DNA of 63,360 bases, filler included, from Folioceros fuciformis (lineage: Eukaryota), in assembly GCA_049999805.1 (NCBI GenBank). It is 8 parts of 8 records of this genome, joined end to end, with 100 filler letters (N's around TTAATTAATTAA, not from the genome) between each part and the next. Parts side by side here need not be neighbours in the genome. Positions count along the whole stretch, not along the records: positions 35,103 to 37,576 come from JBNGIO010006204.1; 7 more parts are not named here. One strand, 5' to 3'. The position numbers and the translations under genes were made by a program. Positions 5,764-61,177 of this stretch are shown here, piece by piece; the first letter of the stretch is position 1, and every line of letters begins with the position of its first letter. The notes beneath the pieces were generated by a model that was given only the letters and a program-made list of their open reading frames with translations, was not told the DNA's origin and did not search any database.

Positions 5764-15543
<9,780 letters not shown>

Positions 15544-21900: not shown

Positions 21901-24900
21901 ATGCTCTCCTAGCTCATATTGTCCTGGAGCGTATACCAGATGCTCACGATAGACATCCAGCTCATACTCACCTTTCCCTGAAAAAGCACGGCAGAATGCA
22001 TCTGGGACAATGTTGGTAAACAAACGTCAGAGCAAACCTCTCACTGACAATTATTTCAGATGCTTCAAAATTTAGACCACCTAACGAACCTTTATCGCCC
22101 GGCTTGTAAGCAGGGATGCTCTGAAGCAAACCACCCTCATGCTTGGCTTCGGGTTCAGTAATGACCTGAGGCTCCTGTTTGAAACCTCTTTCCATAGTTG
22201 TAGTACCAGGGTACATAGGTATGATTGACTGTCGTGGAAGTGCCTTAATGAGCTCGTAACACTGCCTACTTCTACTAACCTGCACCTCAGGATCTTGTAA
22301 TGGTCATCAACTGTAGAGGTTCTGACATTACAATAGCAATCACCCAGTAGGAAGAATGTCATATTGTTACCCAATAGAAACGAACAGAGCGAGAAGCATC
22401 CAGGTAAGGGATCCACAAGTTTCCCGGTGGATATTGAGGTCAGCTTCATCTACTTGCTATTGCTTCACAATCTCAATGCTGGCAGGGATGTGATTTGAAT
22501 TCAGAGATGAGGCTTCTGTTTCTGTGGATCCATGTCCATCAACATGCCAAGAAACGAAAATTGTAGCTTAGGTGCACGTCAGGTTAAATGCTGTTGTCAC
22601 TGACATTTGCTATGTTATACACAATGCCACCTTCAGCGGTTATGAATCACACAATCACATTCCATATTTCGTTATTGTGGGCATTAGATGATTTATTCTC
22701 AAGTTCAAATCAAAATATTTATGGGCATTGAATGGCAGCATGCCTGTAACTCCTTATTCATTTATGGCTACTAAGGTTAGGTTTTTCCAGCTTGGGTTCT
22801 TTGAGTTGCATCCTAAGCTGATAGTTCTGCACAGCAGGCAAAGCAGGCTCACCTTTTCTAAATCGTCCTCCGGACTAACACCAGCAGAAGGGCTTATAAT
22901 ACCATTCATCTGTCCTGTCTTAGGAGCCATATCCTTGTCAGAGGTCATAACTCTGTCTTCTCGTTTGCCTCGTGACACAGTGGATTCTTCTGCGAACACA
23001 TTGACATGTAAAAAAAAATTAAAATTATCTAGAGATTCACTAGAAATTCTCTATCAGCGGGATGAGCAGCAGATGAAGATCCGTTATCCAGTGACAAGGT
23101 GCCCAAATTTTGCAACATATGCAATATACCTGAGTTGGGACACTGCAATGATGTTAAGGGGATCACAACGGCAGCTAAGTTGTCCATGCTTCCTAAACCG
23201 AGGGCAGTGTCAACCACTGCTTGGGCTATCTGTTGGTGCACTCCATCCTGCCGTGTTTGCAGAACTGTGTCAAGCTCAGTACTCTTTGAAAGGGCAAGTG
23301 ACTGTGCGCCTTTAACCTCCAGGGTATCCGAGCGCAAGCTATCACTCTTCGAAAAACTCAAAGCAGTTTTTCCTTTTCCAAAGAGCGGCCACGCAGACAC
23401 GGTTTTGACCTCCTGAACAGTCACAGCAAATTCCGGAATCGCTGAAGCTTCACCGTCCACTTCCAAACTCTTGAAGCTCTCCATGGGGAACAATGGAATA
23501 GCAGGCTCTGGTTGGAGGAGTTTCTCTGCTACTGATGATATAGAGCTTCCAGAGGTTACAGCCGAAATAGTACTGCAAACGTCCTGTGGAGTCATCTTCT
23601 CGAAGACTCCATCAGATGCAACAACTATGAAGTTGTCGGTATCTGCTACTCTTTGCCAGCTACTCAGTTCAGGCTCAGCAGTGACCCCAAATCTGCAAAA
23701 AACAATTCCAGGGGTGTTATGTACACACCACAACACAATGCTTCACTGAGAGACGTCGCTGTTTTTCCATCACATGGAAACTGAAAGCAACTAGATTTAC
23801 ACAAACCGTTTCAAAGCAATGTCTCCAATGGCTCGCGTGACTGCCAAGCGTCCATTGACCCTGGGAACACCTCCAGAATTCTCAATAAAACCTCCAGCGG
23901 CCAGAATCCTAATTCTTTCATCCTCCCTGTGTGGACGGTGGTCACTTGTTAGCTCTGTAACACAGGGATGAGCATCTCCTTCTGCACTAACTCCCTGACT
24001 TGGTTTTTTCCGCCTTTGCTTGCGCAAACAGATTCTAGGATCCTCTTGACAATCACCTTTCATCACATGAATGGAAGGAGAACTTCTGTCAGACTTCTTG
24101 CAACCAGAGTGTCCATGACGACTGTGATCACCCTTTAAAATTTGCACTACCTTGTTGCAGGGGTGGTGAGCACGAGCTCGACGAGGAGCAGATTAAAGCT
24201 TTACAGTCTCCAAGGTTCGCTACCAGGAGATGTTTTTCAGCAAGAAGAACGACACAAGCCGTTGACCCACCTTCAAGGCCGTCCCTCCTCGCTCTCTGTT
24301 GTACAGACATGCGTACTTGAGAAGGAACAGTGCAAGGAAAGAATCTCCTACAGGGAAGAGTGCATAGTGTGCTGAGGTATATTTTCACTGTTCAACCTCT
24401 CATCTCAAGCACGTTCCAAGCAGTCAGACTCAAATCCGCTGTAAAGCATGGCCTAAAACTGGACCGGGTAACTTAATAGCTTACATCAGAGAAAATCGCA
24501 TCGATCTCCAGAACGGCCTTCGCTAAAGCTTCTTTCAGTACCGCCCTCAGGAACGAATCTTGCATCTTGCCTGAGGCCATCCAGTTTCTGACATTCTCAC
24601 GAGATTCACCATCCAACTTCTTGGAAGTCTGCAAATCAGATTGGTGTGCACTTTGCTTCGCTGTTGCATCCCACATGGTCTTTGCAACGTCCGAAAAAGG
24701 TACCACATCATCCCCACCAAACAGACCTTCAATTGCAGCTGCCTTTATGTCAAGACATTGGTCTACCAATGAGCTGGAGGAACCATTTTTTCTCCCCTCT
24801 CCACAGAACCAGTCATGGACTTGACCCGACTGTATGTGTTGTCCTGTGATTTCAGCTGGCTGCGAGCAGGTGTCCACGTCGGAGAGACATAAGCTGCTGG

Positions 24901-28220: not shown

Positions 28221-28320
28221 NNNNNNNNNNNNNNNNNNNNNNNNNNNNNNNNNNNNNNNNNNNNTTAATTAATTAANNNNNNNNNNNNNNNNNNNNNNNN
28301 NNNNNNNNNNNNNNNNNNNN
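28221..28320. other. Artificial contig linker N44-TTAATTAATTAA-N44 (also 35003-35102, 37577-37676, 47091-47190, 56238-56337, 58784-58883, 61078-61177)
   Basis: An identical 100-nt spacer with a six-frame-stop 12-mer occurs seven times. Confidence 0.95.
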
Positions 28321-30007: not shown

Positions 30008-30202
30008 TGTTAAACATTAGAGAATCTCACACTACTCACCAAGTTGTGCATAAAGATTGTTCAATTAATATCAACAAAAGTGTTTATATACAAAAACCCT
30101 CCAAGAGTCACGTCTTTTGGGAATAACTAAACTGCTCTTAATAAGTCTGACAGCTGCTATCGTTTAAATGACGGGTAAACCCTAACGGGGTTTCTCCAAA
30201 CA
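30008..30202 (-). repeat. 5' LTR of copia A (195 bp)
   Basis: TG...CA termini, directly abutting the PBS. It starts exactly where copia B RT homology stops. Confidence 0.88.
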
Positions 30203-33200
30203 TACCCACAATCTTCCTGTACATTGTTGGATCTTCAAGTGCTTCACCATCATGAGCACTGAGCTTTAGATTTTGATCCAAAGGAGTCGAGATTGGCTTG
30301 CACTCAACCATACCATACTTAGTTAGTACATCCGACGCATACTTCCGCTGTGACAGCCAAATGCCTGTGTTGGTTCGTATAATTTCAATGCCCAAAAAGA
30401 ACCTCAGTTCACCTAGGTCCGCCATCTTGAACTCTTGTTGTAGAAGTTCCTTGATCTGCTCCACTTGATCCAACTGATTACCTCCAATGATTAGATCATC
30501 CACATAAATGGTCACAAAGACCAGTCGTTTTGTACTTTTGCACACATACAACGAATGATCCGCATCTGCCATGTTGAATCCGATGTGAATCAGATGCTGA
30601 GCAAGATGCTCATGCCAAGCCCTCGGGGCTTGCTTCAGTCTGTACAACGTTTTTTTCAGCTTGCACACATGATTTGGATGATCCAAATCCTCATAACCTG
30701 GTGGCTGGTCCATGTATACTTCTTCCAGCAATTCTCCATGTAAAAACGCATTCTTCACATCCATATGATGTAGGACCCAACCTTTCGATGCCGCTAGTGC
30801 AATCACGGTTCGAATTGTTGCCATTTTGGCAACTGGACTGAACGTCTCCTCAAAATCTATTCCATATGTCTGGGCATATCCCTTGGCCACAAGCCTTGCC
30901 TTGTACCTGTTGATACTACCATCTGCGTTGTGTTTGACCTTGTACACCCATTTGCAACCTATTGGTTTCTTGCCTTCAGGTAGTTGTACTAGGTCCCATG
31001 TTGCATTCTGATTTAACGCATTCATTTCTTCATCCATAGCATGTTCCCACTTTGTGTCTCCAATAGCTTCTTCAAAGCTTCTTGGTTCCACATCCTGTAC
31101 AACCTTTGCCATATAGGCATGGTGCCTAGCTACATAGCTATCATAGGTCAACCGCTGTATTGGAACCTTCTGCCTTCCAGATCTCCGTGGGATTGAACCA
31201 CTTCCAGGGGCTGATTGAACCTCTTTTGCACCAGGTGTTTCGATTTTCGGTACACCGAATTCCTCATCCAAGCTCTGCTCAAATTCGCTTGAATCATCCG
31301 CACCTGCACTTAGGTCTGGTATCTTTGAATCCTGGACTTTTTCCTTCCCTTTGCGAGACACAGCTGTGGAGCTCGTAGGACTCACACTACCTCGCAACCT
31401 GCCACTCCATGGATTCTGAACATTTGTCGAGTTTGATGACGCTTGCGGTCCACTCAACACTTGTGATTGTTGACCTGCATTGCTTGTTACCTCAGTTTCA
31501 AGCACATCAGCTACACTACTTCCTTGTACTTCAAAGTACCAGCTACCCATTTCATCAAAGACTACGTCTCTGCTTACTCTCATAGTCCGTGTACTGGGAT
31601 TGTAGCACCTGTATCCTTTCTGTGTAACAGAATACCCAATGAAGACACACTTTTCTGCTTTTGGATCAAGCTTAGTCCGCAACTCCTCCGGAATATGGAC
31701 ATAAGCAATGCAACCAAATACCTTTAAGTGTGACAAGTCAGGTTTCTTCCCTGTGAACTTCTCCTCCGGTGTTACACTGTGCACCGCTGCTGTGGGAGTT
31801 CTGTTCATGATGTACACTGCTGTGCTTACAGCTTCAGCCCAATAGTAGTGAGGCATCTTCTTCTCTGTCATCAATGCTCTCGCCACTTCTGCTATGTGCC
31901 TGTTCTTGCGCTCTGCAACTCCATTTTGTTGTGGCGTATAACGACATGAGTACTGCCGTTGAATGCCCTGTTCTGATAAGAATTTGCTGAACTCTCTGGA
32001 GAAGTACTCTCCCCCTCCATCAGATCTTAGGCATTTGATGTGCCTACCTGTCTGCTTCTCAACCATCGCCTTGAAAGTATGAAAATGAGTGATCACTTCA
32101 TTTTTTTCTTTCATGAAATAGACCCACACCTTCCTTGTGTGGTCGTCAATGAAGGTCACATAGTACTTGCAGCCTTCGATTGATGCAGTCTGTGTAGGAC
32201 CCCATACATCTGAATGCACAACATCCAACACATATCTGCTGACATGTTTGTCATGGGGGAACGCATTCCTAGGTTGTTTCCCAAGTTGACATGCTTCACA
32301 TATACCTTGCAGTCCATTTTCTGTAAGCTTGGGTATGCCTGTGACAACCTTCTGATGCTGCATGGACTTCAACTTCTGCACATTTACATGTCCAATGCGT
32401 TTGTGCCACATCTCTAGGTCTGTCACTACCCTTGTACCCTTTGCAAACATGGCTGACTTCAGCTTAGGAACCTCCACGTTCAAGGTGAACATCCGTCCAA
32501 CCTTCTGTCCTTGAGCAATCAGGCGACCGCCTTTCTTGCACTCTTCAACAAAGAGTCCTGCAGGTGTAAATCTAACCTGCAGTCCTTGCTCAACCATCTG
32601 CCCAACTGACACCAAGTTCTTTGTGATGTTGGGTACGTGAAGAACATCTACCAGGCACTTCACTTTGCCATCCTGCATCTTCAGAGGTACAGTTCCTGTA
32701 TGCACAATTGCATGTGTTGTGTTATCTCCAGTTTCTACATATCCAGGTTTGTCAAGCACTTGCATTTCTTTGAACCACTCCCCATGGCATGTCATGTGGT
32801 TCGAAGCTCCTGAGTCCACATACCACACAATCTCATCATTGTTGGATCCATTAGCAGACATAGAGTTAAGCATATGCTGCATGACAAACAAGTTTTCTGA
32901 GTCATTCTGACTGCTGCTAGAGGCATAATTGTTCTGCTGCCTCCTGTTGCCTTGATTTCTCCTTGGACAGTCTCTTTCGAAGTGGTCTAACCTACCACAA
33001 GTCCAGCAACCACTATTGTCTGCATTTGCATCATTTTGTTGTTGATTTCCACGTCCTCTTTGACTCCCCCAGCCTCGAGAATTTTCTCCTCTTCCACGTG
33101 TACTCTTGTACTGGGACTCCTGATTCTGTTGTTGATTTTGGTAGGGATTCCGACCTCTACCACCTCTTTGCCCTCTGCCACCTTGGGCTCTACCTCTGCC

Positions 33201-33854
33201 TCTGCCAGAGTAGAAGGCCTGCTCAGAGTTTTCCTTAGGCTTAGAGGATGATTCCTCGCCTAGGTTTTTCTCCTCTATCATCAACATAGAAATCAGGTCT
33301 GAGAAATTGGGAATGTTTTCCCGAGTCTGTATGGAAGTCTTGAACTGCTTGTAGGCAGGTGTTAACCCGCGCAAGCAAACTTCGACCTTGTCATCATCTT
33401 CCACACTGACACCAATGGACGCAAGGGATTCCACTATCCCTTTGATCTTTAACGCGTACTCATTGATTGATAAGTTCTTCTTCATAACTGTGTTGAAGTC
33501 ATTCTTCAACTGCAGTTTTCTCGCCTTCGTGTTAGTCTCATAGAGTTTTACCAACTCATCCCATGCTTCTTTGGGCGACTCTGCATCCTGTATGTGCCCA
33601 ATCATGGTGTCATGAATGCTGATTGACAGCCAATACATGACCTTCCGAGATCCTTGACTCCAATCCTTCAGCGCCTTAATCTGCTCCGCTGTTGCATTCC
33701 GTTCAAGTACTACAGGGGGTTTTTCATACTCCCCCTCAATGTAGTCCCAATAACCCTTTCCCATAAGAAAGTTTGTAAAACGAAACTTCCAGGCATGGAA
33801 GTTGTTTTTGTCCAGCTTCTCCTGTACGATCTGGTTAATACTGTCACTGGCCAT
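30203..33854 (-). CDS. Copia gag-pol polyprotein, truncated after MYRKIVG by insertion
   Basis: Zinc knuckle [14 protein letters not shown], protease [22 protein letters not shown], integrase [40 protein letters not shown] and IYVDD. Confidence 0.93.
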
Positions 33855-34757: not shown

Positions 34758-35102
34758 CTGATACCCGAACCACTACTCATGCAAGGAGTGTTCTGTTTAA
34801 CGAACTATCACTCTTAACTCCTCCTCAGCTAGCACCAACCAGTTCACAGGCTAGTAGCAGTCATTCAAATGACATGGAGGATACAGACATGAATGTGCAG
34901 CCACCAGTCCAGGTGGCGACACCACAGACAGCAGCAACACCTCCTTCCACACAAGTACAGCCTTTAAGTACACCTGTTGTAGTTCCCACTCCGACTGGAG
35001 GGNNNNNNNNNNNNNNNNNNNNNNNNNNNNNNNNNNNNNNNNNNNNTTAATTAATTAANNNNNNNNNNNNNNNNNNNNNNNNNNNNNNNNNNNNNNNNNN
35101 NN

Positions 35103-37576
35103 CCTACCTAAACCGGGATCTTTCTAACTGTACAGATCCGGTCTAAGACTATCTAACTTAACTAATTTATACATTTTATTTTTCTAAACGTCTGGTCGTC
35201 CGGCTTGGTGGAGTCTTCTTCGGACTCCTACTTCCGGATGCGGGGACTTCGGCTGCCTTCTTGGACTCTGGAGTGAACATAAATTCTCCAGCTCCGGTTT
35301 CGTCCAGGAAAAGGTTGGGAAGGGAGACGTCCGACAGATGGGGTTCTTGAGACTCCCTTGCCCGCACTATCCGCTCCATGCTGTTGACGATCCGGTCCGC
35401 AGCCTCCCGCCCCTTCTGCATGGCGCCCTCTATTCGCTCCGAGTAGTCGGAGAGGATCGCCAGCATCCTGGAGCCGGAAAGTTTCCGATCCTCCAGGGCC
35501 TTCGCATTGTACAACTCTGCCTTGGCCGCTGCCGCTCCCGGTACGCCGAGGGTTTCCTTCACTTGGGTCGCCACCATGGAGACCTCCCGGGCGATCATCC
35601 GGATCGCGACAGTATCCTCTCTAGCCCGGAGAAGCTCGGCCTTGGTCTTCTCCAGCTCTCCTCGCAGCGCCCGGATCTCGGCTTGATGTGCTTCTGCCTC
35701 ACCCGGATCCGCGATGCACTCGGCTACCTTAGCCGCTAGGTTCTTATCCGGGCGAACACCGATCACGTTGGCGACTTCGATTAGAACCTGGTTTTTACTT
35801 TCCATGTCTAATCGAAGGTTCGTCACTGCGTCAAGCAGTGGCGTGATCGGATCGCCGAATCCCACGAAACTCTTCGGCTGTGCTCCTGGTTTGGAGTTAG
35901 GCCGGGAAGAAGTTTCCGGTTCCTGGGCTTTTGCCTTGCCCTTCTCCTGGGGAGGAGACTTCGCCTTTTGTTTCTTTGGCGGCGGGGAGGTGACTGCACA
36001 GTCTTCCTCATCTGAATCCGGTTCCGTCCCGGACTCGGGTTGAGCCTCGTCATCTGACGTCGACTCCCCGTATTTCAACAGCATCTCCTGATGCTTCCAG
36101 ACCTTTTCTTCCGGTCCGGTCAGGAGTTCTGCATGCTCATACAGGTGGAAGAGGTAGGGACTCAGAGGAGTTGCCCTACTCTTTCCGACCCGGCTGACTA
36201 ACTGGGACACCAGATCATGCATGATCCGGCCCCAGTCTACTTTCCGGTCCCCTTTTAGGGCCCCGAAAATCGTATTCGCGAGGGTTATTGTAACCCTCGT
36301 GGGTTTTTCCGGATGCAGAATGGGGAGTAAAAACTCCAGCAGTCTACGGTTCCGGTTGGTCGCGCAATCCTCGATTGCGTAACCATCTTTCGGATTTACT
36401 GGTCCACGGAACTTTCCGCGGATCCAGTCATCCTTGCGGCTGGCCATCCCCAGCCCTCCGGAGCGGAAGCCATAGACTTCTCTCCAGAGCTTATCCGTCC
36501 ACCTCGCAGGGTCGGCACGGATTGAGCCGTTAAAAATATTAGAGCGGCCTCCGACCAACTCCCTAACGACGAGTTCTTCCTTAAACCCCCAGGGCTTAAG
36601 GGAAAACTCCGAGCAACCCATGGAAAAGAGATCTTCCATGAGTTCCATCCGCTCCTTCTCCACTTCAGGGAGGAGCGGAACCACCTTCCGCAGCTTCACC
36701 TCGACAGGAGATGAAGCTACTGGTCCTTGCTTTCGCTTGACCGGCGGCATGGATCCTAACACACAAACTTACTTCTCACCACACGAAATAAACCTTACTT
36801 CGCTCTCCGATCTCAACCGGAAGGTATGGACTGCAACTACTGACACCTGACACGATTCTCTAAAACACTGTGCGCGGAAGCCTCGTGGAAACGATGAGCC
36901 AACGCTGACGCACACTAAACGACAAGGAAAAAGAGTTGAGGCGCGCCAGGCTCCTGTCTTTTATACTCGGGCGACCGTCCGGACAGTTATCATGACCTGT
37001 ACCGGTCCGGTTTGCGCCGCTTCGAATTAATTACCCGGTCGTGCCCTAATCCGGATAGGATCCGAGCGCCGCCTGGATCGGAATCATTCCGCATCCGAGC
37101 AAACCTCTTTCTTTCCGTAAGATCGCAACTCCGTTCCAATTCTTTTGGTGAACCGCTTTCTAACTTCCGGTTATTCATCACTTTATCATCTTAACACCAA
37201 AAAAATGAAATTTTGAGTTGTCACATTATCCCCCTCTCATCTGTGAGCGTCCTCGCGAACACTACGCGGTTTCATCTGAAGAAGCACTAGCGACGTACTT
37301 CTTTACTCGTGATCCGTTTACCCGCGTATCTAACCATTGGCCTTGCAAATCCTTGAGCTGCAAGGATCCGTTCTCGAATATCATTGCAACCCGGTATGGT
37401 CCCATCCAACGAGTGTGCAACTTACCCGGAAAATCTTTGTGGCGGTTGTCATATAGAAGGACCAGTCCTCCTTCTCGGATTCCATGATCGGTTGGGATCT
37501 TCCGGTCGTAGTCCTCTTTTCGTTTGGTCTGGACCCGTTTGGTCCTTTCGAGGGCTGCATTCCGGATTTCTTCCAA
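35103..37576 (-). mobile_element. Non-chromovirus Ty3/gypsy element E, 3' part: integrase end, PPT, LTR start, long accessory ORF
   Basis: Integrase C-terminus GKLHTRWMGPY..RVNGSRVKKY (37262-37576), PPT AGATGAGAGGGGGATAA (37242-37226), then TGTGACA at 37225. The whole contig is CCGG-rich. Confidence 0.8.
35176..36750 (-). CDS. 524-aa retrotransposon accessory protein (globular N-domain, acidic/NLS linker, coiled coil)
   Basis: Uninterrupted ORF containing WREVYGF, FLLPILHPEKPTRVTITLANTIFGAL, KVDWG, PLSPYLFHLY, PPPKKQK and a heptad-rich HQAEIRALRGELEKTKAELLRARE. Confidence 0.8.
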   Translation of the reverse strand: MPPVKRKQGPVASSPVEVKLRKVVPLLPEVEKERMELMEDLFSMGCSEFSLKPWGFKEELVVRELVGGRSNIFNGSIRADPARWTDKLWREVYGFRSGGLGMASRKDDWIRGKFRGPVNPKDGYAIEDCATNRNRRLLEFLLPILHPEKPTRVTITLANTIFGALKGDRKVDWGRIMHDLVSQLVSRVGKSRATPLSPYLFHLYEHAELLTGPEEKVWKHQEMLLKYGESTSDDEAQPESGTEPDSDEEDCAVTSPPPKKQKAKSPPQEKGKAKAQEPETSSRPNSKPGAQPKSFVGFGDPITPLLDAVTNLRLDMESKNQVLIEVANVIGVRPDKNLAAKVAECIADPGEAEAHQAEIRALRGELEKTKAELLRAREDTVAIRMIAREVSMVATQVKETLGVPGAAAAKAELYNAKALEDRKLSGSRMLAILSDYSERIEGAMQKGREAADRIVNSMERIVRARESQEPHLSDVSLPNLFLDETGAGEFMFTPESKKAAEVPASGSRSPKKTPPSRTTRRLEK

Positions 37577-40500
37577 NNNNNNNNNNNNNNNNNNNNNNNN
37601 NNNNNNNNNNNNNNNNNNNNTTAATTAATTAANNNNNNNNNNNNNNNNNNNNNNNNNNNNNNNNNNNNNNNNNNNNTAGCCTCTTATACTACCTTGGCCT
37701 AAACCTCCATCTCTATCTATTAGGGTTAGCCTTAGTCAACCACCCAGCAATCGCTCTCTGACCTAAGCCGCCCCTAATTCTGACCTAAACCTAACTCTGA
37801 CCTAACCCTAACTTTGACCCAAACCTAGTTCTGACCTAACCCTAACCCTAACTCTGACCTAACCTTAATCCGACCTAATAGGGGTTGTGTCCCATGGACA
37901 CCACTGGGTGCCCTTACCAAAATTGACCAACCTCTCAAGACTACCAAAATGGTTAGTGCCTCTCAACATTCTCCCTCTTCTCTTAAATCATTCCATCCCT
38001 TCTCTCAGATCATTCCATCCCTTCCCTTCAGAGCATCCAGCAACCCTTCAAAGACCCGTCTCGCCTCACCATTAATCTAGCTACTAATCTAACCTAATCT
38101 TCTAACCATTTCACCACAGGATTCACTCAGAGATTCCCAAAAAGAGAAATCCTACCATTTCCCAAGGACCTATTCACCATGTGGAGTCCACATACTCCCC
38201 TTCTCATTTGTTGGCGTCCTCGCCAACTACTGATAATATTTCTTCACCCGCAAGCCATTAACCCTAGTTGGCAAGTTAGGGCCGTTGAGGTGCTGCAGTT
38301 GGATGGACCCATTCTCATACACTTCCAGCACCCTGTAAGGTCCCATCCATGTCAAGTGTAGCTTACCTGGAAAGTGCATGTACCTATTGTCATATAACAA
38401 TGCTAAATCTCCAAGCAAAACATACTCTTGTTTACGCAACTTCTGGTCGTGCCACTTCTTCCTCCTCTCCTGAACATCAAGGAAAACAGCCAAGGCCCGT
38501 TCCCTATCCTCATCATGCTGCACAAAACTAGTTAGCCTCTCCAGTTGGCTCTCCTCCACGGTCAATCGATTGCTCTCCTGCATTCTCAAGGTAGGTACCT
38601 CAAATTCGATGGGCATGACCGGTGAGTGTCCATAGGTGAGGTAATAAGGGGTCTGCTGGGTAGTAACCTTCTCAGCAGTCCTATACGCCCACAAGGCTGA
38701 ATGGAGCTTCCTATCCCAATCATGAGCATAGGTGACGGTGACCTTGCCTAGAATCTTGCACAACAGCCCATTAGCCTTCTCCATGAGTCCATTGGCCTTA
38801 GGGTTGTAGGGAGTGGTCTTCCTATGACTGATATTGAAATATTCAGTCATGTGCTTGACTACGTCATTGATGAAGTGAGTCCCCCTATCACTCACCAGCT
38901 CCAACGGGCACCCATACCTTGTGATGATTTGCTCAAACAAAAATTGGGCCACCACATTTGCTGTGTCCACGGGCAAAGCTTGGGCCTCTACCATGCGTGT
39001 GCAGTAGTCAGTTGCCACCAAGATGTATTGGTTCTGCCTTCCCTTGGACTTGGGCTGAATTGGTCCTACAAAATCAATCCCCCACTTCTCAAATGGTGCT
39101 AGGGCTAGGATGGGGACCAATGGCCATTGTGTGGTCCTAGTAGGCTTCCCCACCCTTTGGCATGCATCACACCTCTTGATGAATTCTCCAGCATCAGCAT
39201 GCATTGTTGGCCACCAATACCCTGCTGCCAGAATTTTTCTACAGGTCACATGGGCTGCATAATGGCCTCCAGCCTCTCCCTCATGTAGGGAGCTGATAAC
39301 TTGCTCCACTTGGCCAGGTTTGACCCACAACCTCTCCACGCCATCAGCTCCTGTGCGATACAGCTTGCCCTTGTACTTAACCACCAGCCTTGTGAAGTAC
39401 AAGAACAGCCGCTGCTGCTGCCGTGTGAGATCAACTGGAAATTCCCCCGTGCCTAAAAAATCAGACACCTCTTGGTAGGAAGGCTTGCGGGACCCTCTTC
39501 TCCCCTTCTCATTTGGTGCTGCACCTTCACCTCTTGGCAACCTAACATTTGGTTTGGCCCTCTCCTTCTCCACTAGGTCTGCTGAAAATGCTTCATCCGG
39601 AAAATCATCTTCTTGGTCCTGAACCACATTCCCCGTTTTCAGCCTGGATAGAAAATCAACATTCACATGCCTGCGCCCTTCCCTTGTTTCCACGGTGAAT
39701 GTGAACTCCTGCAAGAGCAAAATCCAGCGAGCTATGCGGCCCAATAGGTCTGCCTTGTTGACCAAGTGCTTGAGAGCAAAATGATCAACATGGAAGACAA
39801 ACTCATAGGAGAGGAGTTAGTGGTGGAATTTACGACAAGAGTAGACCATGCCAAGTGCCTCCCTCTCGGTTGTGGTGTACTTGCGTTCAGCCTCTGTAAG
39901 TTGACGTCCAGCATAGTAGATTGGGTAGTCCCTCCCCTTCTCATCCCGCTGGCTAAGGATTGTCCCAATGGCAAAGGTTGAAACATCCACGTACACATGG
40001 AATTTCTTGTCCCAATCAGGCCCCTTGAGTGTTGGTGCTGTCACAAGAGTGGTCCTCAAGTCCTGAAACGCAGCCTCCCTCGCCGCTGTCCACTCCCAAG
40101 ATTGCTCCTTCCTCAATAGGCCCGTCATAGGGGCAGCCCGTCTAGCAAAATTTGGCACGAATCGGCGGTAGTATCCCACCATCCCAAGGAATCCACGCAG
40201 CTCTTTCAGTGTGGTTGGGGCCCTCAAGGCAGCAATCACCTTCACCTTATTCAGGTCCACTTCAATGCCCCTTGCTGAAATTTTGTGACCTAGCAAGATC
40301 CCTTCAGCCATGCCAAAATAGCATTTCTCTGGATGCAAACAAAGCTGCGTCTCACGGCACCTAGCCAAGCACAGCCTTAGGTGCTCCAGATGCTGCTCCA
40401 CCCCTCCAAACACATAAAAATCATCTATGAACACCTCTAGGAATTTGTGGAGGAAATCCTTGAAGATCTTGTACATGCTGCGCATAAAGGACCCCGGTGC

Positions 40501-43500
40501 TCCTGTCAGCCCAAAAGCACTCCTCTTGTAGGCGAATGTCCCCCAATCAGTTGTGAAGGCTATCAATGGCCAGTCACTCTCCCTGAGGGACAGCTGATTG
40601 TGACCAGAATAGCCATCCAAAAAGGAGTAAATCATGCGGCCAGCCACCAAATCTAGAATGTTGTCAATGAATGGCAAGGGGAAATGATCCTTCTTGGTGG
40701 CTTTGTTCAGCCTTCTCCAGTCCTGGCACACCCGGATCTTCCCTTGCTGTTTCCTGGGCACCACCACGATTGGGGCCACCCAATCTGAGTTCACAATTGG
40801 AAAAATCACATTTGCCTTCAAGTATTGCTCCAGCTGTTCCTTTACCTTCATGGAGTATTTTGGATTCAGCTTGTAATGTGGAATTCGAATGGGAACAACG
40901 CCTGGCTCCAAGTCGATCTTGTGCTCCCCCCACTCTTTGGGAATTCCCTTCATGTCCGTCACCTCAAAGGCAAACACATCGATGAACTCAGCCAGGAGTT
41001 GCTTCACTCCCTCCTCCAATTTGGCATCCAGCTGTTTGGAAAGCTTCAGCACCTTGCCCGGCAACACCTCCACATCCTTAATTTCATCAGCCTGCACCCA
41101 TTCACGCTGCACGGGTGCAAAGCTGACTCCAAACCCTTCTTCCGGCTCTCGGGGATCTTCCTCCCTCATTCCCCATTCCCTGAATAGGTCTTCGGAGGTG
41201 AATCTAGTGACCTCTATATCCTCACCAGCAGGCCCTTCAGACCTTGGGTCACAGCCCCCTTCCCTCATCTCACCTTCCTTCACACCCCTCTTGGCATGGG
41301 AGGCTTTTTCCTGGCCCTTCCCTTCAGCAACTCCAGCAACCTGTCCTTCCACGTTTGCTGCTTCAGCCCCTACCATGTTGCAGTCCAAGGTGATCCCGAA
41401 ACACTCGACCCGATTCAAGGTATAAGGAATATCCCTCCGGTAGTCCTCCTCTTCATCTGTCCATGATATGTGGGAAAAAGGGAATTTATCTTCCCCTTCC
41501 CCCTCCTCCAAATCAGTTGTGTCCCCCACGGACGTGTACCCCTCCGTGTCCGTTGGGGTCTCACCGAGGTAGACATCCCGGCTCCAGCTCAAACAAATCC
41601 TACCCTCCTTTGTCTTGGGGTTCCATTCAGGTGGTTTGAAAGCCACCTCCTTCCTCCCCCATGACAACCTGCACCTCAATCCATACAGCCAAGTCCTGCC
41701 CAGCAAGATGTCGTAGCCTAGTGCCTTGTGTTGAATGACCACAAAATCGAGAAGGTAGGGAATGGTCCCTATGGTCGTGGTTACCCCTCTCAGCTCCCCC
41801 ACTGGCTGCATTCTGGACATATCGGCCAACCTCAAGACCTTGGTTGTGTGCTCGATCTCCAATCCGAGTTTCTTGGCGGTATCCTCCGTCATAATATTCA
41901 CCCCTGAACCTATATCTAGCGGCACCCTCTTAATCACGCAGCCTGCAATCTCCACCTGCAGTTCAGCCGGTCCTTGGTCCTCCATGGACACCATGTTGAC
42001 CATGGGAGCCAACAACCTTGGCCTTGATTTAGGTAGCCTCTTCCTTCTCTTGGGTTGGGCCTCCTGCAATGCCTTCCGGACCTGTTGTCGATATTTAAGG
42101 TTATCCTTCAGGAGCTGACCAAAGGTAACAGCAAATTGCTGGTCCATGATGGCTCCAGCCAAATCAAATGGCTTCTGGACAGCCCCATTGGTGCCTTTGG
42201 TCACCGCTGCCACCTCCCTAGGTGGCAGACTTGCAGCCACGGGTGCTGACTCCTTTGCTGCCCTATCCAACTCCTCCTGGATCATGTCTAGTACCTCTCC
42301 CCTCACATCTGGAGGAAATTCCAGGTTTCCCCCCTTTGCTGGGCTTGCTCCCTCTCCAGCCCTTGATTTTTCCTCCTTGGGGGTCTGCCCTTCCTGGTCT
42401 CCTTTCTCCCGACATGATTCCTCCACATTTGGGGTGCCCTTCTCCTCCTCCAATCCTGCAGCAGATTCCACTTGCTTCCCCTTCTTCTAGGCACCCCGCT
42501 GCCTTCCCCTTCTCTTCCCACTGCGGGTACATACCGCCATGGCTGCAGCCTCCCCATAGGAACCCTCCTTAGTGTTGTCCAACCCTTCCAGCCCCTTAGG
42601 CACCTTGGCCTCGGCCTCCTCCCAAACAGCCATGAGGGCGTCCTCCACGTGCATGGCCGTTGCAGCCCCTTGAGGTGCTGCTTGCAGCACCCCTGTCACC
42701 GCTGGCTGAGCAATCCTCACGCTCTTCCTAGGGTTCTGACAAAGCACGCTGCCCGCCACGTGCCCCTGTTGTTTGCAGTCCTGGCACAACCTATCGTAGT
42801 CTCCATTGGCCTGCCTAGTTGCTGATGGACAGCTGTTGGCATAGTGTCCAAATCCTCGACAATTATAGCATTGGACAACCCCCGTTGCTTGACCAGCAAC
42901 TCTCCCCACCTGGTTGCTACGACCACCCGTGCCCATAGGATTTCGAAGAATGGAAGGATGGGCTGTCTTGAAATATTGCTGCCCTTGGGAAAACTTCTGA
43001 ATTTGGTAGGAGTCCTCCACTGACCACTCCTCTTCTTCCCCTTCACAGGCCAGCAAATGCACCTTGGCCCCTTGACAATGGGTCTTGGTGTGGCCTTGCT
43101 CACCACAAATGGAGAAAAACAAGTTAGCCCTGCCACTAGTTGCAGCCCTCCTTCTCTCATGTTCCTTGACAGCATGGAGGTGAAACTTCTCAAACTTGTT
43201 CATCATCTCTCCATCTTGGACTCCTGCTGCTCCACTTTCTTGGCTGCAGCCTCAGCCTCTTTCTTGACCTGCTCCACCTCCCTCTTGGCACAAGCCACCT
43301 CTTGCTTGGCCTTAGCTAGATCCTTTGCCTTCCTTGCTTCCTTCTTCCGCCTAACCACCTCTTGCTCCTTCTTCTTCAGCCTTTTCTTGACAGCCTCGTC
43401 CTCCGAGGACTCCTCCTCTAGGTTGTCCCCTGCTAAAGATGAAGAGTTCTCTGCTGCTGATTCTTCTCAAGAATCGCTCTCCTCAGAGAAATCTTCATCC

Positions 43501-44619
43501 GAGGAAGATGACTCCCTCTTCTTCTTCCCCGTCCTAGGCATGTTCTTCTTCTTGTCCTTCTCCCTCACTCTCTCCTTCTCCTTCTTGGATCTCCCTTTGC
43601 CCCACGGATGAGACTCCTCATAATTGAGGGCTGCCCTTACAGCCCTGTCCACATCTTTTTCTGCGAACAATTTCACATGGCCCCCCATCCTCGATCCTAA
43701 GCCTCCAGCGAACCACCTAATGGCTTGTAAGTCCGAATGAGGTCCACAGCGATCCCGCAGGCTGTGGAACCTCTCCACATAGGCCTGCAAGGTCTCCTTC
43801 CTCCTCCTCCTCAAGGCCTCCAGCTTGGACAGCACATAGCCCTCTACGTCTATCCCCCTGAACCGCTCACAAAAGGCCCTCTTCAACACATCAAAAGTTG
43901 CCGGAAATGTGCCAACCTTGAGGTACTCTCTCCTGTACCACTTGGCAGGCCCTCCACATAGTACACCATAGAACAATTGGATGCGCTGTGCATCCGCTGA
44001 TTCCTGGTTACAAAGGGTCAGCTGCTCAAACCTCTCCACAAATTCATCCGGGTCCTCATACCCCTTCTTCTCCCCATACAAGGGGTACAACTGCTTGGTG
44101 GACATTGCAACAATTGGGGCCGCCATGGTGCTTGCACTCACCACTGCAGTTGCGGATCTAGCAGCTCTAGCAACTGGAGTTGGGCTGATGTTGCTGAATC
44201 CTTCAGCCCCTGCACTCCTAATCACCTGCACCAGTCTAGGATGAAGACCAAAGAGCAGACTTGGATTAGGTTGCCCTGGATTAGGCCTCCCCCCAATAGC
44301 TGAAAGTTGAGGGTCTTGTTTCACCGTGATTGATTCCCCCAAGATCTGCTGGTTGCTTGCCCCTCTCCTCCTCCTCTCTAGTGTATGCCCTGGCTGTGCC
44401 CTCCTTAGCTCCCTCTCCACTACTCTTTGCTCACGCTCCAATACTTGCTGCTGCCTCCTTGCTTGAGCTTGAGCTCCCCCTTCAAAGCTAGAGTTGAAAT
44501 CTTCAGCTCCTATGCGGGGCATCCATCAACCCTGCAACATTCCCTTGTACAGTCCCCTATCCAGGTCAGTCCTCTCCAAACCTTGACAGCAATGTCACTC
44601 CCCGACAACGGCGCCAAAA

Positions 44620-46009
44620 TGTGGAGTGATTTCTTGCACACCCAAGAACCACTAAGGGGCCACACTTCCCCTTATTATCGTTGCAGTCTTATGATTCGCT
44701 CCCAAGGGAGTGAACTAATGTCAAGATTACCTACATCTCCCTAATCTCACCCTATCTATCAGCATATACCAAGTGCTACAGCAATAGGTCAGAATTCTTG
44801 GTCCTGTCTTCGACTCCTACCACAACACCAACCCCAGCCTCAACAAAATGAGAACTCCAGCGTTGTCTTCAGCCCTCGCTTCCAGCTCCAAGTATCAATC
44901 ACTTCAATGCTGAGAGGAGGCTCCAGCCCCAAGTCTGGCCTCAAATTCTCAGCATCTAGTGCTAGCTACCTCCGCGGCTGAACAAGAACCTCAACCTCAG
45001 CTAGCTCCTCACTCCACCTTCAACACTTCATTCCACCACTTCAGCACTTCACCCCAGCATTTCACTCCTTCACTTCAGCACTTCAGTCCTTCACTTCAGC
45101 ACTTCACTTCACCCTCCAGCCCCTCACTTCAGCTCAACTCCTCACTTCACCACTTCCACTTCCAAAATCTACAACTCAACCCTTCTCTCCTGCAATTTGG
45201 AACACAACAGCCTTCTCTCTTGCAGCCTTCAAGGCAGAGGCGAGGCCTAGGGCTGGGTAGCCTCCTTGGCTCACGGCCCTGCAACCTCACCTCAGCCAGC
45301 ATGCAAGGTGGTCAGCCATTGCGGATCCAGCCACACGAATCTTGGCAGTCTTGGGATCCTCCACGTTCCCCTAGTGGCAAGGGAAATCAGAACCTTGGTT
45401 TAGTCTCAACTAGCTCAGCGCCCTAAGCCAGGAGTTCTGTACCCAAGGTCTAGGGAAATCGCATCGTAGACAGCCCCCTCCTCAATGGCAGGTTAGCCTC
45501 TTATACTACCTTGGCCTAAACCTCCATCTCTATCTATTAGGGTTAGCCTTAGTCAACCACCCAGCAATCGCTCTCTGACCTAAGCCGCCCCTAATTCTGA
45601 CCTAAACCTAACTCTGACCTAACCCTAACTTTGACCCAAACCTAGTTCTGACCTAACCCTAACCCTAACTCTGACCTAACCTTAATCCGACCTAATAGGG
45701 GTTGTGTCCCATGGACACCACTGGGTGCCCTTACCAAAATTGACCAACCTCTCAAGACTACCAAAATGGTTAGTGCCTCTCAACATTCTCCCTCTTCTCT
45801 TAAATCATTCCATCCCTTCTCTCAGATCATTCCATCCCTTCCCTTCAGAGCATCCAGCAACCCTTCAAAGACCCGTCTCGCCTCACCATTAATCTAGCTA
45901 CTAATCTAACCTAATCTTCTAACCATTTCACCACAGGATTCACTCAGAGATTCCCAAAAAGAGAAATCCTACCATTTCCCAAGGACCTATTCACCATGTG
46001 GAGTCCACA
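44620..46009 (-). repeat. LTR of element D (1390 bp), shared between two tandem units
   Basis: TGTGGA...TCCACA termini, with the PBS on one side and PPT + integrase on the other. 45494-46009 matches 37677-38192. Confidence 0.9.
45577..45697. repeat. Degenerate ~17-bp tandem repeat containing CCCTAA (TTAGGG) units in the LTR; second copy at 37760-37880
   Basis: ctgacctaaacctaact-ctgacctaaccctaact-...-ctgacctaaccctaaccctaact. Confidence 0.8.
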
Positions 46010-47090
46010 TACTCCCCTTCTCATTTGTTGGCGTCCTCGCCAACTACTGATAATATTTCTTCACCCGCAAGCCATTAACCCTAGTTGGCAAGTTAGGGCC
46101 GTTGAGGTGCTGCAGTTGGATGGACCCATTCTCATACACTTCCAGCACCCTGTAAGGTCCCATCCATGTCAAGTGTAGCTTACCTGGAAAGTGCATGTAC
46201 CTATTGTCATATAACAATGCTAAATCTCCAAGCAAAACATACTCTTGTTTACGCAACTTCTGGTCGTGCCACTTCTTCCTCCTCTCCTGAACATCAAGGA
46301 AAACAGCCAAGGCCCGTTCCCTATCCTCATCATGCTGCACAAAACTAGTTAGCCTCTCCAGTTGGCTCTCCTCCACGGTCAATCGATTGCTCTCCTGCAT
46401 TCTCAAGGTAGGTACCTCAAATTCGATGGGCATGACCGGTGAGTGTCCATAGGTGAGGTAATAAGGGGTCTGCTGGGTAGTAACCTTCTCAGCAGTCCTA
46501 TACGCCCACAAGGCTGAATGGAGCTTCCTATCCCAATCATGAGCATAGGTGACGGTGACCTTGCCTAGAATCTTGCACAACAGCCCATTAGCCTTCTCCA
46601 TGAGTCCATTGGCCTTAGGGTTGTAGGGAGTGGTCTTCCTATGACTGATATTGAAATATTCAGTCATGTGCTTGACTACGTCATTGATGAAGTGAGTCCC
46701 CCTATCACTCACCAGCTCCAACGGGCACCCATACCTTGTGATGATTTGCTCAAACAAAAATTGGGCCACCACATTTGCTGTGTCCACGGGCAAAGCTTGG
46801 GCCTCTACCATGCGTGTGCAGTAGTCAGTTGCCACCAAGATGTATTGGTTCTGCCTTCCCTTGGACTTGGGCTGAATTGGTCCTACAAAATCAATCCCCC
46901 ACTTCTCAAATGGTGCTAGGGCTAGGATGGGGACCAATGGCCATTGTGTGGTCCTAGTAGGCTTCCCCACCCTTTGGCATGCATCACACCTCTTGATGAA
47001 TTCTCCAGCATCAGCATGCATTGTTGGCCACCAATACCCTGCTGCCAGAATTTTTCTACAGGTCACATGGGCTGCATAATGGCCTCCAGC
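46010..47090 (-). mobile_element. PPT + integrase of a second, tandem copy of element D
   Basis: Apparently identical to 38193-39273 (offset 7817); the ORF translations are identical. Confidence 0.88.
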
Positions 47091-47190
47091 NNNNNNNNNN
47101 NNNNNNNNNNNNNNNNNNNNNNNNNNNNNNNNNNTTAATTAATTAANNNNNNNNNNNNNNNNNNNNNNNNNNNNNNNNNNNNNNNNNNNN

Positions 47191-52771: not shown

Positions 52772-53485
52772 ACTATTTTCTATTACTGATAAAGAGATGG
52801 AAAGTCTCATCTACTCTGAAGATTGGAAGAACAACCCGAGAATGGCTAATGGCCAAAAAGGGTACTAGCCCCCTTCAAACATCATTCTAAAAAACTACCT
52901 ACTGCTTCCAAAATATCATGATGTAGAATAACAAAAGGCCTACCTACCACCGGTGCCGAAGAATCCGATTGACCTAAGCTTATTATTGTTCTAAAAACCA
53001 TGTTGGCCAAAGCTCTTTGCAAAGCAATGGATAGGCGTTGTCGAAAGAAGGCCACCACATAGGAAAGAGGGGAACACCAATCCCATGACTCTGATAAACC
53101 TTGGTGCACTCCTTCATGAACCTTGAAAAGTCTTTGCCCATGGCTTCATGAATCTTAAGAGCAAGCAGGATGAAAATATGCCCGTAGTGCAAGGGAGAAA
53201 ACTTATGGACTTTGGCCCTTGCACAACCCTCTGCCGCCCATCCAGGGGGGTTGATGACAATTTGCTTGCAAATCAAATCCTTAGTGGGGCATCCGTAGCA
53301 ACCACATCAACGACACAAACTTATTCCCCCTACTGAAAAAAGGTTGGCTCCAAATGAAAACCCCATTGCGCAAAGTATATGAATGCTTCTTATACAAACG
53401 AAACCCGCACTCCCTAGCCATTGAAGACATAACCCACTTGATAGTAGCAATGCATGAAAATGATTGAGACCAACAATCACATGAC
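52772..53485 (-). mobile_element. Degenerate 3' remnant of a CRE-like (restriction-like endonuclease) non-LTR retrotransposon, copy 1
   Basis: VVDVV.TD, GWAA...AKVHKF...IF.LLAL.IHEAMGKDF, AFFRQRLSIALQRA resemble the RLE C-terminus. Homologous to 54465-55535. Confidence 0.6.
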
Positions 53486-54464
53486 CTACTGATGTGTAGC
53501 ATTCATAGCAATGTTTTCTTTCCATTTTCTAAACTCAAGGTTCTTCATAAATAAATGAGTGGTATGAAAGACATTAGTGATATTGAATGCCTCAAAATTC
53601 AACCAATTGAAGGCCCAGTGATTCCATTTCCTATTTTTATCATTTTCAACTCTTTTAGCATAATATAAACTCATTTTGACGAGTCCTTATGTTTCTTCTC
53701 AAAGTCTAAACCATAAACAAGTAATAAGAATCTTTATGGTATTTGGCAATCTTGACATGTTTGGCTCAAGCTCAGCTCCAAGTATAGATTATATCTAGCT
53801 CATTCTAGTACAACATGAAGATTAAAGAGCATAAGGTAATTGTGAGAGACAACTTCAATACAAGTCTAAGAGGAGGAGTAGTCTGAGAAATCATAAATGA
53901 ACGAAATCATTTGTACACTACAATTTGAGCATATTCTATAAAAATCCTAAACATCTATACTCTAGTTGAACTTGATAATGACCTTGTTGCTTAAAACCCT
54001 CATAATTGAATAAATTTTAAAATAAAAGAAATATTTACTTTGCATAAAAGAAACCTAAACTCTTCAAAATTGATGTTTTTTGTACAGATATTTGGTCATG
54101 GGAAAAAGCCTCTAAGTAGAAAAAAGGATGATAGGAGAAACCCCTTTCTCCACATATAATGTTTCATATGAAAAGTCTAAGCATGGAATGCACTTGTTAC
54201 CCTTGATTGAGCCTATTTACGTAGAAGCTTAAAAATGTTGATTAGGCAATTCTAATGGGCTTATGAGGTTTGATCACACCTTATAGATTAATGGGAGGTA
54301 GCTTGCCTTATGTAAAGAGTGTGAGAATGTAAGGCAATTATTAAACCTCAACCAAAGCATAATCACTTGCTTACGTTGATCTAACACAAACACAAGCTCA
54401 ATCATAATGGTCACCCTCAATCAATGTGGAGTCCCTTTCATAAACTGGTTTAATTAAGGGAAGG

Positions 54465-55535
54465 ATTATTTTCTATTATTCATAAAGAGATGGAAAATCC
54501 CATCTACTCCGAAGATTGAAAGAAGAACCCGAAAAGGGCTAATGGCCAAAATGGGTACTAGCCCCCTTCAAGCATTATTCTAAAAAACTACCTACTACTT
54601 CCAAAATATCATGATGCAAAATAACAAAAAGGCCTACTTTCCACTGGTACCGAAGAAGCCACTTAACCTACAATTATTGCTATTTTAAAAACCATGTTGG
54701 CCAAAGCTCTTTGCAAAGCAATAGATAGGAGTNNNNNNNNNNNNNNNNNNNNNNNNNNNNNNNNNNNNNNNNNNNNNNNNNNNNNNNNNNNNNNNNNNNN
54801 NNNNNNNNNNNNNNNNNNNNNNNNNNNNNNNNCTCTTTGCAAAGCAATAGATAGGAGTTGTCGAAAGAAGGCCACCACAATTATTACTATTCTAAAAACC
54901 ATGTTGGCCAAAGCTCTTTGCAAAGCAATAGATAGGAGTTGTCGAAAGAAGGCTACCACAATTATTGCTATTCTAAAAACTATGTTGGCCCAAGCTCTTT
55001 GCAAAGCAATAGATAGGAGTTGTCGAAAGAAGGCCACCACAATTATTACTATTCTAAAAACCATGTTGGCCAAAGCTCTTTGCAAAGCAATAGATAGGAG
55101 TTGTCGAAAGAAGGCCACCACATAGGAAAGAGGGGAAACACCATTCCCATGACTCTAATAAACCTTGGTGCACTCCTTCATGAACCTTGAAAAGTCCTTG
55201 CCCATGGCTCCATGAGTCTCAAGAGCAAGCGGGATGAAAATATGCCCGTCGTGCAAGAGAGAAAACTTATAGACTTTGGTGCTTGCACAACCCTTTGCCG
55301 CCCATCCAAGGGGGTTGATGACGATGTGCTCGCAAATCAAATCCCTAGTGGCATCCGTAACAACCACATCAACCACACAAACTTATTCCCCCTTTTGAAA
55401 AAAGTTGGCTCTAAGTGAAACCCCATTGCGCAAAACTATATGAACGCTACGAAAACCGCACTCTGTAGCCATTGAGAACATAACCCACTTGATAGCAGCA
55501 ATGCATGAAAATGATTGAGACCAACGATCACATGA
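54465..55535 (-). mobile_element. CRE-like remnant, copy 2, with internal tandem amplification
   Basis: VVDVVVTDAT...GWAAKGCASTKVYKF...IFIPLALETHGAMGKDF. Clear nucleotide similarity to copy 1. Confidence 0.6.
54671..55122. repeat. 81-bp tandem minisatellite (at least 4 units; spans a gap)
   Basis: caattatt recurs at 54878, 54959 and 55040. The unit encodes VAFFRQLLSIALQRALANMVFRIVIIV. Confidence 0.9.
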
Positions 55536-58783: not shown

Positions 58784-58883
58784 NNNNNNNNNNNNNNNNN
58801 NNNNNNNNNNNNNNNNNNNNNNNNNNNTTAATTAATTAANNNNNNNNNNNNNNNNNNNNNNNNNNNNNNNNNNNNNNNNNNNN

Positions 58884-60447: not shown

Positions 60448-61177
60448 GGAAGTCGGAGGACCTCCTCCAGCCACAACAAGTCTGAAAAGCAAATGCTATG
60501 CCTAATCCCAGCTGTAACGCGAGCTGAAATTGTTACTGTCTTCCTCCTGACGCGAATCAGGAGTTATGGGAGAATTGCCAGCATCACTGCTCGAGCTGGA
60601 AAACTCAGTCTCCGGTTCGCTGCAGGTGGTGAAACTCTCATCCGAGCGTGGGCTGTTATGTCTGCGTCTCTCCTCATATGAGATCCTTTCTGGAGAGAGA
60701 CAAGGCGGACTTCTTCTTGCAACCTGAGCTCAAAACCTGGAGACAGCAGCACAACTATGTTAGAAACAGTGGGAGAAAGGCATACAGGAGTCTGCAAAGA
60801 TGGCAGGCTTCACACACAGATGTAAACGAGGACGTGACTCACGATAGTAGCTGATCGTGTGGCCGGGAAATACTTTGCAGGGCTGAACCTTCACACGCTT
60901 CATCACCAAGCGGCTAAAACGGCAGCGATACCAAATAGGCGTACCTGGATTGAGCATGCTACTCACAGCTACGATCTTCGTCTCTTCCAGGTAGTCGTTA
61001 GTCTCAGGGAACATGAATGGCTTGCTGGGCTGATGCTGGGAATCTGCATACTCGCACTCCACTTCACTGCGGGAGCCNNNNNNNNNNNNNNNNNNNNNNN
61101 NNNNNNNNNNNNNNNNNNNNNTTAATTAATTAANNNNNNNNNNNNNNNNNNNNNNNNNNNNNNNNNNNNNNNNNNNN

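Follow-up and report, generated by a model that had tools for sequence, protein, structure and literature searches.

A possible LTR-borne accessory gene downstream of the polypurine tract in a gypsy-type retrotransposon of Folioceros fuciformis

In a stretch of 63,360 nucleotides from the genome of Folioceros fuciformis (assembly GCA_049999805.1; "the window" below), one short, unplaced contig of 2474 bp (contig E, positions 35,103–37,576) carries an intact 524-amino-acid open reading frame (ORF) in an unusual place. It contains 104 codons of a Ty3/gypsy integrase, a junction resembling the start of a long terminal repeat (LTR), and then the ORF, in the same sense, with the contig ending 73 nt past the ORF stop; all of its features are on the minus strand. 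The leading explanation, and the most likely one, is that a long LTR carries this ORF as an accessory gene. The probability of this placement is put at about 0.45: the short contig stops before any LTR end, and no 5′ copy or target-site duplication was seen.

Contig E would in that case cover the 3′ portion of an Athila/Tat-like Ty3/gypsy retrotransposon, with the family's normal junction of polypurine tract (PPT) and TG following the integrase stop; plus-strand priming there would put everything downstream in U3. The downstream cassette would consist of a cluster of RACCGGR sites, a TATA box, a 215-nt ATG-free leader, the 524-residue ORF and an AATAAA at its stop, within an LTR longer than 2.1 kb in contig E and longer than 2.6 kb in a metagenomic relative, L001. 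Each round of replication would place a copy of the gene at either end of the element, transcription would start from a promoter within the LTR, and the protein may act on the element's own motif-dense DNA.

The integrase-LTR junction

The integrase fragment (37,262–37,576, including its stop TAG at 37,264–37,262) is cut by the contig end at 37,576. After the stop come tgttc, GCGAGGACGC (37,256–37,247), tcacag, the PPT ATGAGAGGGGGATAA (37,240–37,226), and TGTGACA (37,225–37,219), presumably the first LTR (U3) bases. A related element, D, occupies another contig of the window (37,677–47,090) and has gag, a zinc knuckle, reverse transcriptase, RNase H and integrase in gypsy order, the integrase matching the Pfam models rve and Integrase_H2C2; the contig E fragment is 53.8% identical to the C-terminus of the D integrase over 93 amino acids (tblastn E = 3.9e-25). 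The D junction reads TAG-ttg-GCGAGGACGC-caacaa-ATGAGAAGGGGAGTA-TGTGGAC. The junction motif of contig E (37,226–37,256: GCGAGGACGC, 6 nt, then ATGAGAGGGGGATAA) is ordered and spaced as in D, where it stands directly before the inferred LTR start, and in both elements TG, the mark of an LTR start, directly follows the PPT. If the tract of contig E is functional, the mechanics of reverse transcription make the downstream sequence U3, and hence place the gene inside the LTR.

An earlier, preliminary description of this DNA had regarded the TGTG of D as a demonstrable LTR start. Its wording of the D junction is accurate, but the start is inferred: the two ends of the D contig (37,677–39,273 and 45,494–47,090; 1597 bp) are 100% identical and extend through the junction into integrase, so that D is a collapsed or tandem assembly (a circular permutation or a tandem) with a period of 7817, and no repeat boundary marks the LTR. 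The start rests instead on the PPT, the initial TG, the terminal inverted repeat and a primer binding site (PBS). From TGTGGACTC, just after the PPT, the D LTR runs about 1390 bp to CACTCCACA, which repeats its start in inverted orientation; TTT and the PBS TGGCGCCGTTGTCGGGG come next. Though inferred, the LTR start of D is well founded. The D PBS is close to that of ATHILA elements, given as TGGCGCCGTTGCC in the available part of the ATHILAfinder preprint (10.64898/2026.03.20.713144); no tRNA gene was found within the window for comparison with it. Because of the duplicated contig ends, a second integrase copy appears at 46,047–47,090 on the D contig.

For contig E, the individual features on which the preliminary description had built (stop, GCGAGGACGC, PPT, TGTGACA, TATAAAA, ATG, ORF and protein motifs) are all present as it had placed them, on the minus strand. 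A read contig of 1059 nt from one of four DNA runs (X4) covers 37,041–37,576 and bridges 37,225, so the junction is found outside this assembly as well; X4 may, however, derive from the source sample. The read contigs are short, and among those listed none has a loose end at 37,225.

Related copies and extent of the repeat unit

The window carries a single copy of the ORF-bearing unit. A metagenome scan yielded two further loci, L001 (2678 bp) and L002 (1580 bp). The L001 ORF is 50% identical to that of contig E, and L001 is the sole intact relative with flanking DNA. When the junction region of contig E is compared with it, the best local match (L001 82–115) begins exactly at TGTCACAAC (TGTSACAAC; TGTGACAACTCAAAATT in contig E, TGTCACAACACAAATTTG in L001), that is, at the first base of TGTGACA. 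The match scores 25, against a mean of 18.0 (standard deviation 2.2) for shuffled sequences, 3 of 300 of which reach it. The 82 nt upstream in L001 are unrelated flank, with neither PPT nor integrase. From the start of the unit to the ATG is 475 nt in contig E and 513 nt in L001. The degenerate L002 has about 400 nt of upstream sequence without integrase and a CCGG-bearing stretch beginning about 490 nt before the ORF; its positions 910–1480 are a degenerate copy of the gene family, 44% identical over residues 16–205, with in-frame stops.

From the TG onward, the unit holds the promoter-like region and the ORF and runs off both contigs, giving it a length of at least 2123 bp in contig E and at least 2596 bp in L001. 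An inverted copy of its first 9–11 bases, as expected at an LTR end, is absent from these 2123 and 2596 nt. No Athila-type PBS (three or fewer mismatches to TGGCGCCGTTGCC) is present in the 2474 nt of contig E or the 2678 nt of L001, no TGG block at a CA end is conserved between the two, and the L001 ORF is followed by 420 nt in which no frame opens.

Three candidate PBSs were rejected: TGGCGCGCC at 36,950, which lies 9 nt after the TATA box and is absent from L001; TGGCTCATCG at 36,903 (TGGCACAAGCG in L001), which has no preceding CA end and leaves at most about 30 nt for R plus U5; and TGGTGAGAAG at 36,782, which is not TGG in L001. The preliminary description had named an LTR end at GCACA near 36,869 as the case that would separate the ORF from the LTR; this was rejected as well, the sequence that follows being neither PBS-like nor conserved. 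Loose ends of read contigs at 36,868, 36,832 and 36,948 were discarded as boundaries, since they belong to diverged variants of the same leader, and joints skipping 76–191 nt within the leader occur in single read contigs.

The ORF and its promoter-like signals

The ORF (35,176–36,750, stop included) is unbroken from its ATG at 36,750 and represents a real accessory gene on which purifying selection acts. Near-identical copies are found in four DNA runs (X1–X4) of a single study, and the comparison among copies that had been proposed in the preliminary description gives 19 synonymous variants out of 25, against an expected fraction of 0.24 (p = 7e-8), for the 25 ORF sites among the 40 variant sites listed (40 of 115). 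A first protein search found 233 relatives, the best 64% identical, with no Pfam domain on record for any of them; a profile of the N-terminal domain matched 915 clusters (at 50% identity) at E ≤ 0.001, 122 of them at E ≤ 1e-30. This is a large protein family without a Pfam model or a name. The domain is N-terminal in every family protein (the longest listed has 742 amino acids), and the ORF stands alone, without fusion to pol; longer forms with a fusion were sought and none turned up, although this negative carries little weight. Scans of viral contig and genome contig collections gave no relative.

The ORF has promoter-like signals of its own. A TATAAAA box at 36,959–36,965 is kept as GAGTATA(A/T)AA in L001 (GAGTATAAAA in contig E, GAGTATATAA in L001), and the leader between it and the ORF (36,751–36,958) is free of ATGs: counted from the initial T of the TATA, the start codon is 215 nt away in contig E and 216 nt away in L001, with no ATG between them in either, while five and three ATGs, respectively, are found just 5′ of the box. 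The upstream DNA of the two copies is nearly unalignable, yet the TATA, its spacing from the ATG and the ATG-free leader are common to both. At the other end, AATAAA (35,180–35,175), which overlaps the stop, and TATAAAT (35,171–35,165) are read directly from the sequence as candidate signals (35,165–35,180 together), and 73 nt follow the stop before the contig ends (35,103–35,175). In L001, TATATAAG is found about 130 nt past the ORF stop.

In run X1 only, the summed contig depth at 36,265–36,430, which codes for part of the N-terminal domain, is 2892–6726, against 50–280 alongside, with loose ends at 36,363, 36,393 and 36,396; this gene fragment may belong to a very high-copy sequence in that sample.

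Protein architecture and fold

The protein contains the motifs VDWG, PYLFHLY and PPPKKQK. Modeling agrees with the layout given in the preliminary description, its coiled coil still being presumed: a predicted globular N-domain (residues 20–229; 36,064–36,693), a predicted disordered acidic/basic linker containing PPPKKQK (residues 230–298; 35,857–36,063), and a predicted long-helix region, presumably a coiled coil (residues 299–466; 35,353–35,856). Mean identity to the contig E protein among 27 aligned relatives is 0.61 in the N-domain and 0.27–0.30 in the remainder, 0.27 in the linker. AlphaFold2, with 57 sequences, models residues 1–240 with a mean predicted local distance difference test score (pLDDT) of 88.2 and a predicted template-modeling score of 0.83. 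In the full-length model, residues 20–229 are folded and 230–298 disordered (pLDDT < 50), followed by helices at 302–330, 349–401 and 426–466 and a disordered tail. Pfam searches of the long-helix region gave coiled-coil type noise only.

Compared with 48,161 representative chains of the PDB, the modeled N-domain is most similar to the VANC21 protein on its target DNA (9lnk_A), with 197 residues aligned at a root-mean-square deviation of 4.1 Å, 11% identity and a Z score of 6.5, which is within the common range, since best scores of 7–8 are common for models without clear relatives. The next chain has a Z of 3.5, and 41 of the 48,161 chains reach Z ≥ 2. The match is best regarded as a fold-level lead, strengthened by its margin and coverage, and not as proof. 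VANC proteins carry the domain DUF1985. In a language-model feature search, the named clusters nearest to the N-domain were Transposase_32 (0.90, 0.89 and 0.89) and ATHILA (0.89).

The extra ORFs of Tat elements encode PMD or Transposase_28 domains fused to a coiled coil and, as far as the accessible part of PMC4408406 goes, were not found in moss Tat-like elements; in what is available of PMC13547354, VANC resembles MAIN, a PMD protein, in structure, and it and the Athila domain are both modeled as coiled-coil oligomers with extended coiled coils. Together with the feature-search neighbors, this literature suggests that the contig E protein is most plausibly a divergent member of the plant transposon accessory proteins of the "globular domain plus coiled coil" type. 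By analogy with Tat extra ORFs and VANC proteins, its modeled structure would suit a nuclear, oligomeric DNA- or chromatin-binding factor.

CCGG density

The CCGG-rich composition pointed out in the preliminary description is real, and extends to the integrase fragment. Contig E has 38 CCGG sites in 2474 nt, or 15.4 per kb, at a CpG observed/expected ratio of 1.03; L001 has 19.4 per kb and the other seven contigs of the window 0.6–4.6. ACCGGA and ATCCGG are 7–10 times over first-order expectation in both contig E and L001. Within the ORF, CCGG exceeds what synonymous-codon shuffles give (25 vs. 16.9 in contig E, reached by 3 of 1000 shuffles; 37 vs. 22.7 in L001, reached by 0 of 1000), and no such excess is found in the D pol. 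CCGG reaches its highest density over the 150 nt leading up to the TATA, with five sites in contig E (RACCGGR-like, at 36,979–37,054, just upstream of the box) and seven in L001. The integrase fragment has four sites in 315 nt and shares this rare, CCGG-dense composition, with arginine codons preferring CGG and proline codons CCG, linking the ORF and pol as parts of a single element.

The two copies share this DNA-level trait although their proteins are only 50% identical, which suggests that the DNA itself is under selection; by analogy with VANC21, the RACCGGA-like sites could be targets of the ORF protein. A CpG ratio near 1 was considered as support for anti-silencing and rejected, because an unrelated chromovirus contig of the window (61,178–63,360) has a ratio of 1.11 without such a gene.

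Placement of the gene: evidence against and alternatives

Several observations weigh against an LTR-borne gene, or against the function suggested for it. Contigs E and L001 contain no LTR end, 5′ copy, post-ORF PBS, target-site duplication or solo copy, and contig D shows the assembly joining integrase, LTR and 5′ region by collapse. The boundary evidence comes from one intact relative, L001, at modest significance, and the degenerate L002. ORF depth is about equal to integrase depth in all four runs (X1, about 9 vs. 11.3; X2, 9.4–15.5 vs. 15.8; X3, 21.9–26.3 vs. 27.5; X4, 12.4–17.1 vs. 14.8), where two identical LTRs would double it; these depths come from read contigs closely matching contig E, and contig depth is a poor and unreliable measure. 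The acceptor-like tttgtgtgttAG, 5 nt before the ATG at 36,750, is present in contig E, as the preliminary description had it, but its AG is not kept in L001, and a splice acceptor there was rejected; of the expression cassette proposed earlier, the conserved TATA and the 215/216-nt ATG-free leader remain.

On the protein side, the resemblance to VANC21 is one of fold only. Foldseek returned nothing from the PDB at E ≤ 0.001, and structural realignment of its 361 chains gave a best Z of 2.5; two sequence profiles run against the PDB did not bring up VANC21 at E ≤ 10, returning coiled-coil noise or nothing. The Pfam models PMD, Transposase_28/32, ATHILA and DUF1985 matched 0 of 28 family members (E ≤ 1) and 0 of 30 further relatives (E ≤ 0.1). 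Kinship of the kind the preliminary description had proposed to look for with Athila, Transposase_28/32 and PMD profiles and with Foldseek was accordingly not found in these searches. What stands of its placement of the ORF within an LTR is the sense ORF after a D-like PPT/TG junction, the boundary shared with L001, and the lack of a PBS or LTR end before the ORF in contig E; the ORF depth is not doubled.

The best surviving alternative, although an unlikely one, combines an Ogre-like 5′ extra ORF with assembly collapse: the LTR beginning at 37,225 would be shorter than 475 bp, the ORF would be the first internal gene, and either the LTRs have been collapsed or the elements are in tandem. It has to be taken seriously because the D contig, with its 1597-bp identical ends, is just such a collapse. 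Sense 5′ ORFs of the "PMD plus coiled coil" type occur in Tat lineage IV (PMC4408406, in the part available), the equal depth of ORF and integrase fits a single-copy ORF, and the non-pol flanks of L001 and L002 agree with an order of 5′ LTR, then ORF. The model fails mainly because there is no PBS: neither a match to TGGCGCCGTTGCC nor a conserved TGG block at a CA end can be found where the short LTR would have to stop, and, with the TATA 215 nt before the ATG, the sole TGG blocks leave at most about 30 nt for R plus U5. Nor does a frame open after the L001 ORF, where gag would be expected.

A distinctly less probable alternative is an ordinary internal 3′ extra ORF of the Athila/SIRE type, with the PPT-like motif vestigial or additional and the true PPT and 3′ LTR past the contig end. 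This is the usual site of sense extra ORFs (PMC7264820, and the preprint 10.64898/2026.03.20.713144 for the ATHILA ORF downstream of pol, both from the parts available), which also counts against an LTR-borne gene. The similar ORF and integrase depths agree with it, as does the second TATA-like box after the ORF in contig E (35,171–35,165) and in L001. However, the contig E junction matches the functional junction of D in its parts and spacing, 5 nt past the stop codon, and L001 and L002 lack integrase where contig E has it. Sequence after a working PPT becomes U3 in one replication cycle, so that the tract would have to be dead.

Finally, a separate element or gene, inserted beside the gypsy end or misassembled onto it, is very improbable: contig E is short and unplaced and L001 carries the unit without pol, but the integrase fragment shares the CCGG-dense, CGG/CCG-preferring composition, a read contig of another run bridges the junction, and insertion exactly at the first LTR base would be unlikely.

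Comparison with known systems and possible function

The contig E protein is of a known accessory kind but falls outside every named family; what is unusual is that its gene comes after the PPT. Among retroviruses, MMTV (mouse mammary tumor virus) sag and HIV (human immunodeficiency virus) nef are genes in or overlapping the 3′ LTR, downstream of the PPT. The contig E ORF is likewise downstream of a PPT and so would be duplicated in both LTRs, but it has no homology to either, its host is a plant-type retrotransposon, and its apparent promoter lies upstream, inside the repeat. Extra ORFs of plant LTR retrotransposons have been described, in the available parts of PMC7264820, PMC6317226 and PMC4408406, only in the internal region and with unknown function. 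Phrase searches of the open-access literature for plant LTR-borne ORFs gave retroviral cases only, and "LTR ORF" gave MMTV only.

The extra ORFs of Tat elements (Ogre, Retand and others) resemble that of contig E in encoding a stand-alone globular domain plus long helices (in contig E, according to the model) in a non-chromovirus gypsy element. They differ in that the contig E ORF has no match to Pfam PMD, Transposase_28 or Transposase_32, stands after the PPT/TG junction and not in the internal region, and comes with its own TATA and leader. The ATHILA-specific ORF (PF03078) is also in sense orientation and after pol, in a lineage that, according to the portion of its description available, shares its PBS type with D; the feature search places the contig E N-domain near ATHILA clusters (0.89), and the Athila domain, too, occurs with an extended coiled coil (PMC13547354, available part). 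There is no PF03078 hidden Markov model match to the contig E ORF, however, and the PPT/LTR junction precedes this ORF, whereas it follows the ATHILA ORF.

VANC21, an anti-silencing protein of the Mutator-like transposon VANDAL21 with sequence-specific DNA binding (PDB 9lnk), is the sole solved chain resembling the N-domain. Both are transposon accessory proteins with a coiled coil (predicted for contig E), and both belong to motif-dense elements: VANC21 recognizes YAGTATTAY motifs densely arrayed in its own transposon (PMC5735166, in the part available). In contrast, identity is 11% with no profile match, the host of the contig E gene is an LTR retrotransposon and not a Mutator-like element, and the contig E motif also fills coding sequence, where VANC21 sites, from what is available of their description, are mainly non-coding. 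The anti-silencing role guessed at in the preliminary description gains this one structural neighbor and no sequence-profile match; the fold-level link and the motif-dense DNA make self-directed anti-silencing a directly testable candidate function.

If the gene is indeed LTR-borne, it would be doubled in every element and survive in solo LTRs, and could act in trans for the whole family long after coding elements decay. A further step, and a long shot by comparison with the placement itself, is that each LTR, solo LTRs included, might be a cassette of RACCGGA-like array, TATA and VANC-like coiled-coil DNA-binding gene, the protein binding family-wide sites against silencing. Anti-silencing of the VANDAL kind would then have evolved in an LTR retrotransposon, borne in the repeat itself.

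Other features of the window

The window is a chain of eight unplaced contigs separated by seven linkers of the form N44-TTAATTAATTAA-N44 (28,221–28,320, 35,003–35,102, 37,577–37,676, 47,091–47,190, 56,238–56,337, 58,784–58,883 and 61,078–61,177), so that features separated by a linker are not genomic neighbors. The first contig (1–28,220) has fragments of host genes: MIF4G and MA3 (3–1787), HTH_61 (10,073–10,654), a piece of DNA_pol_A (13,562–14,008) and a piece of PP2C (23,032–23,742). An apparently intact Ty1/copia gag-pol ORF of 1238 amino acids lies at 30,138–33,854, on its own contig. The chromovirus contig (61,178–63,360; 4.6 CCGG per kb) carries a pol fragment with RNase H, integrase and chromodomain. 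On the contig at 47,191–56,237, families of direct repeats at 52,774–55,351 form a tandem or nested structure, with 81-nt spacing at 54,833–55,122 and longer copies 1.7–2.1 kb apart.

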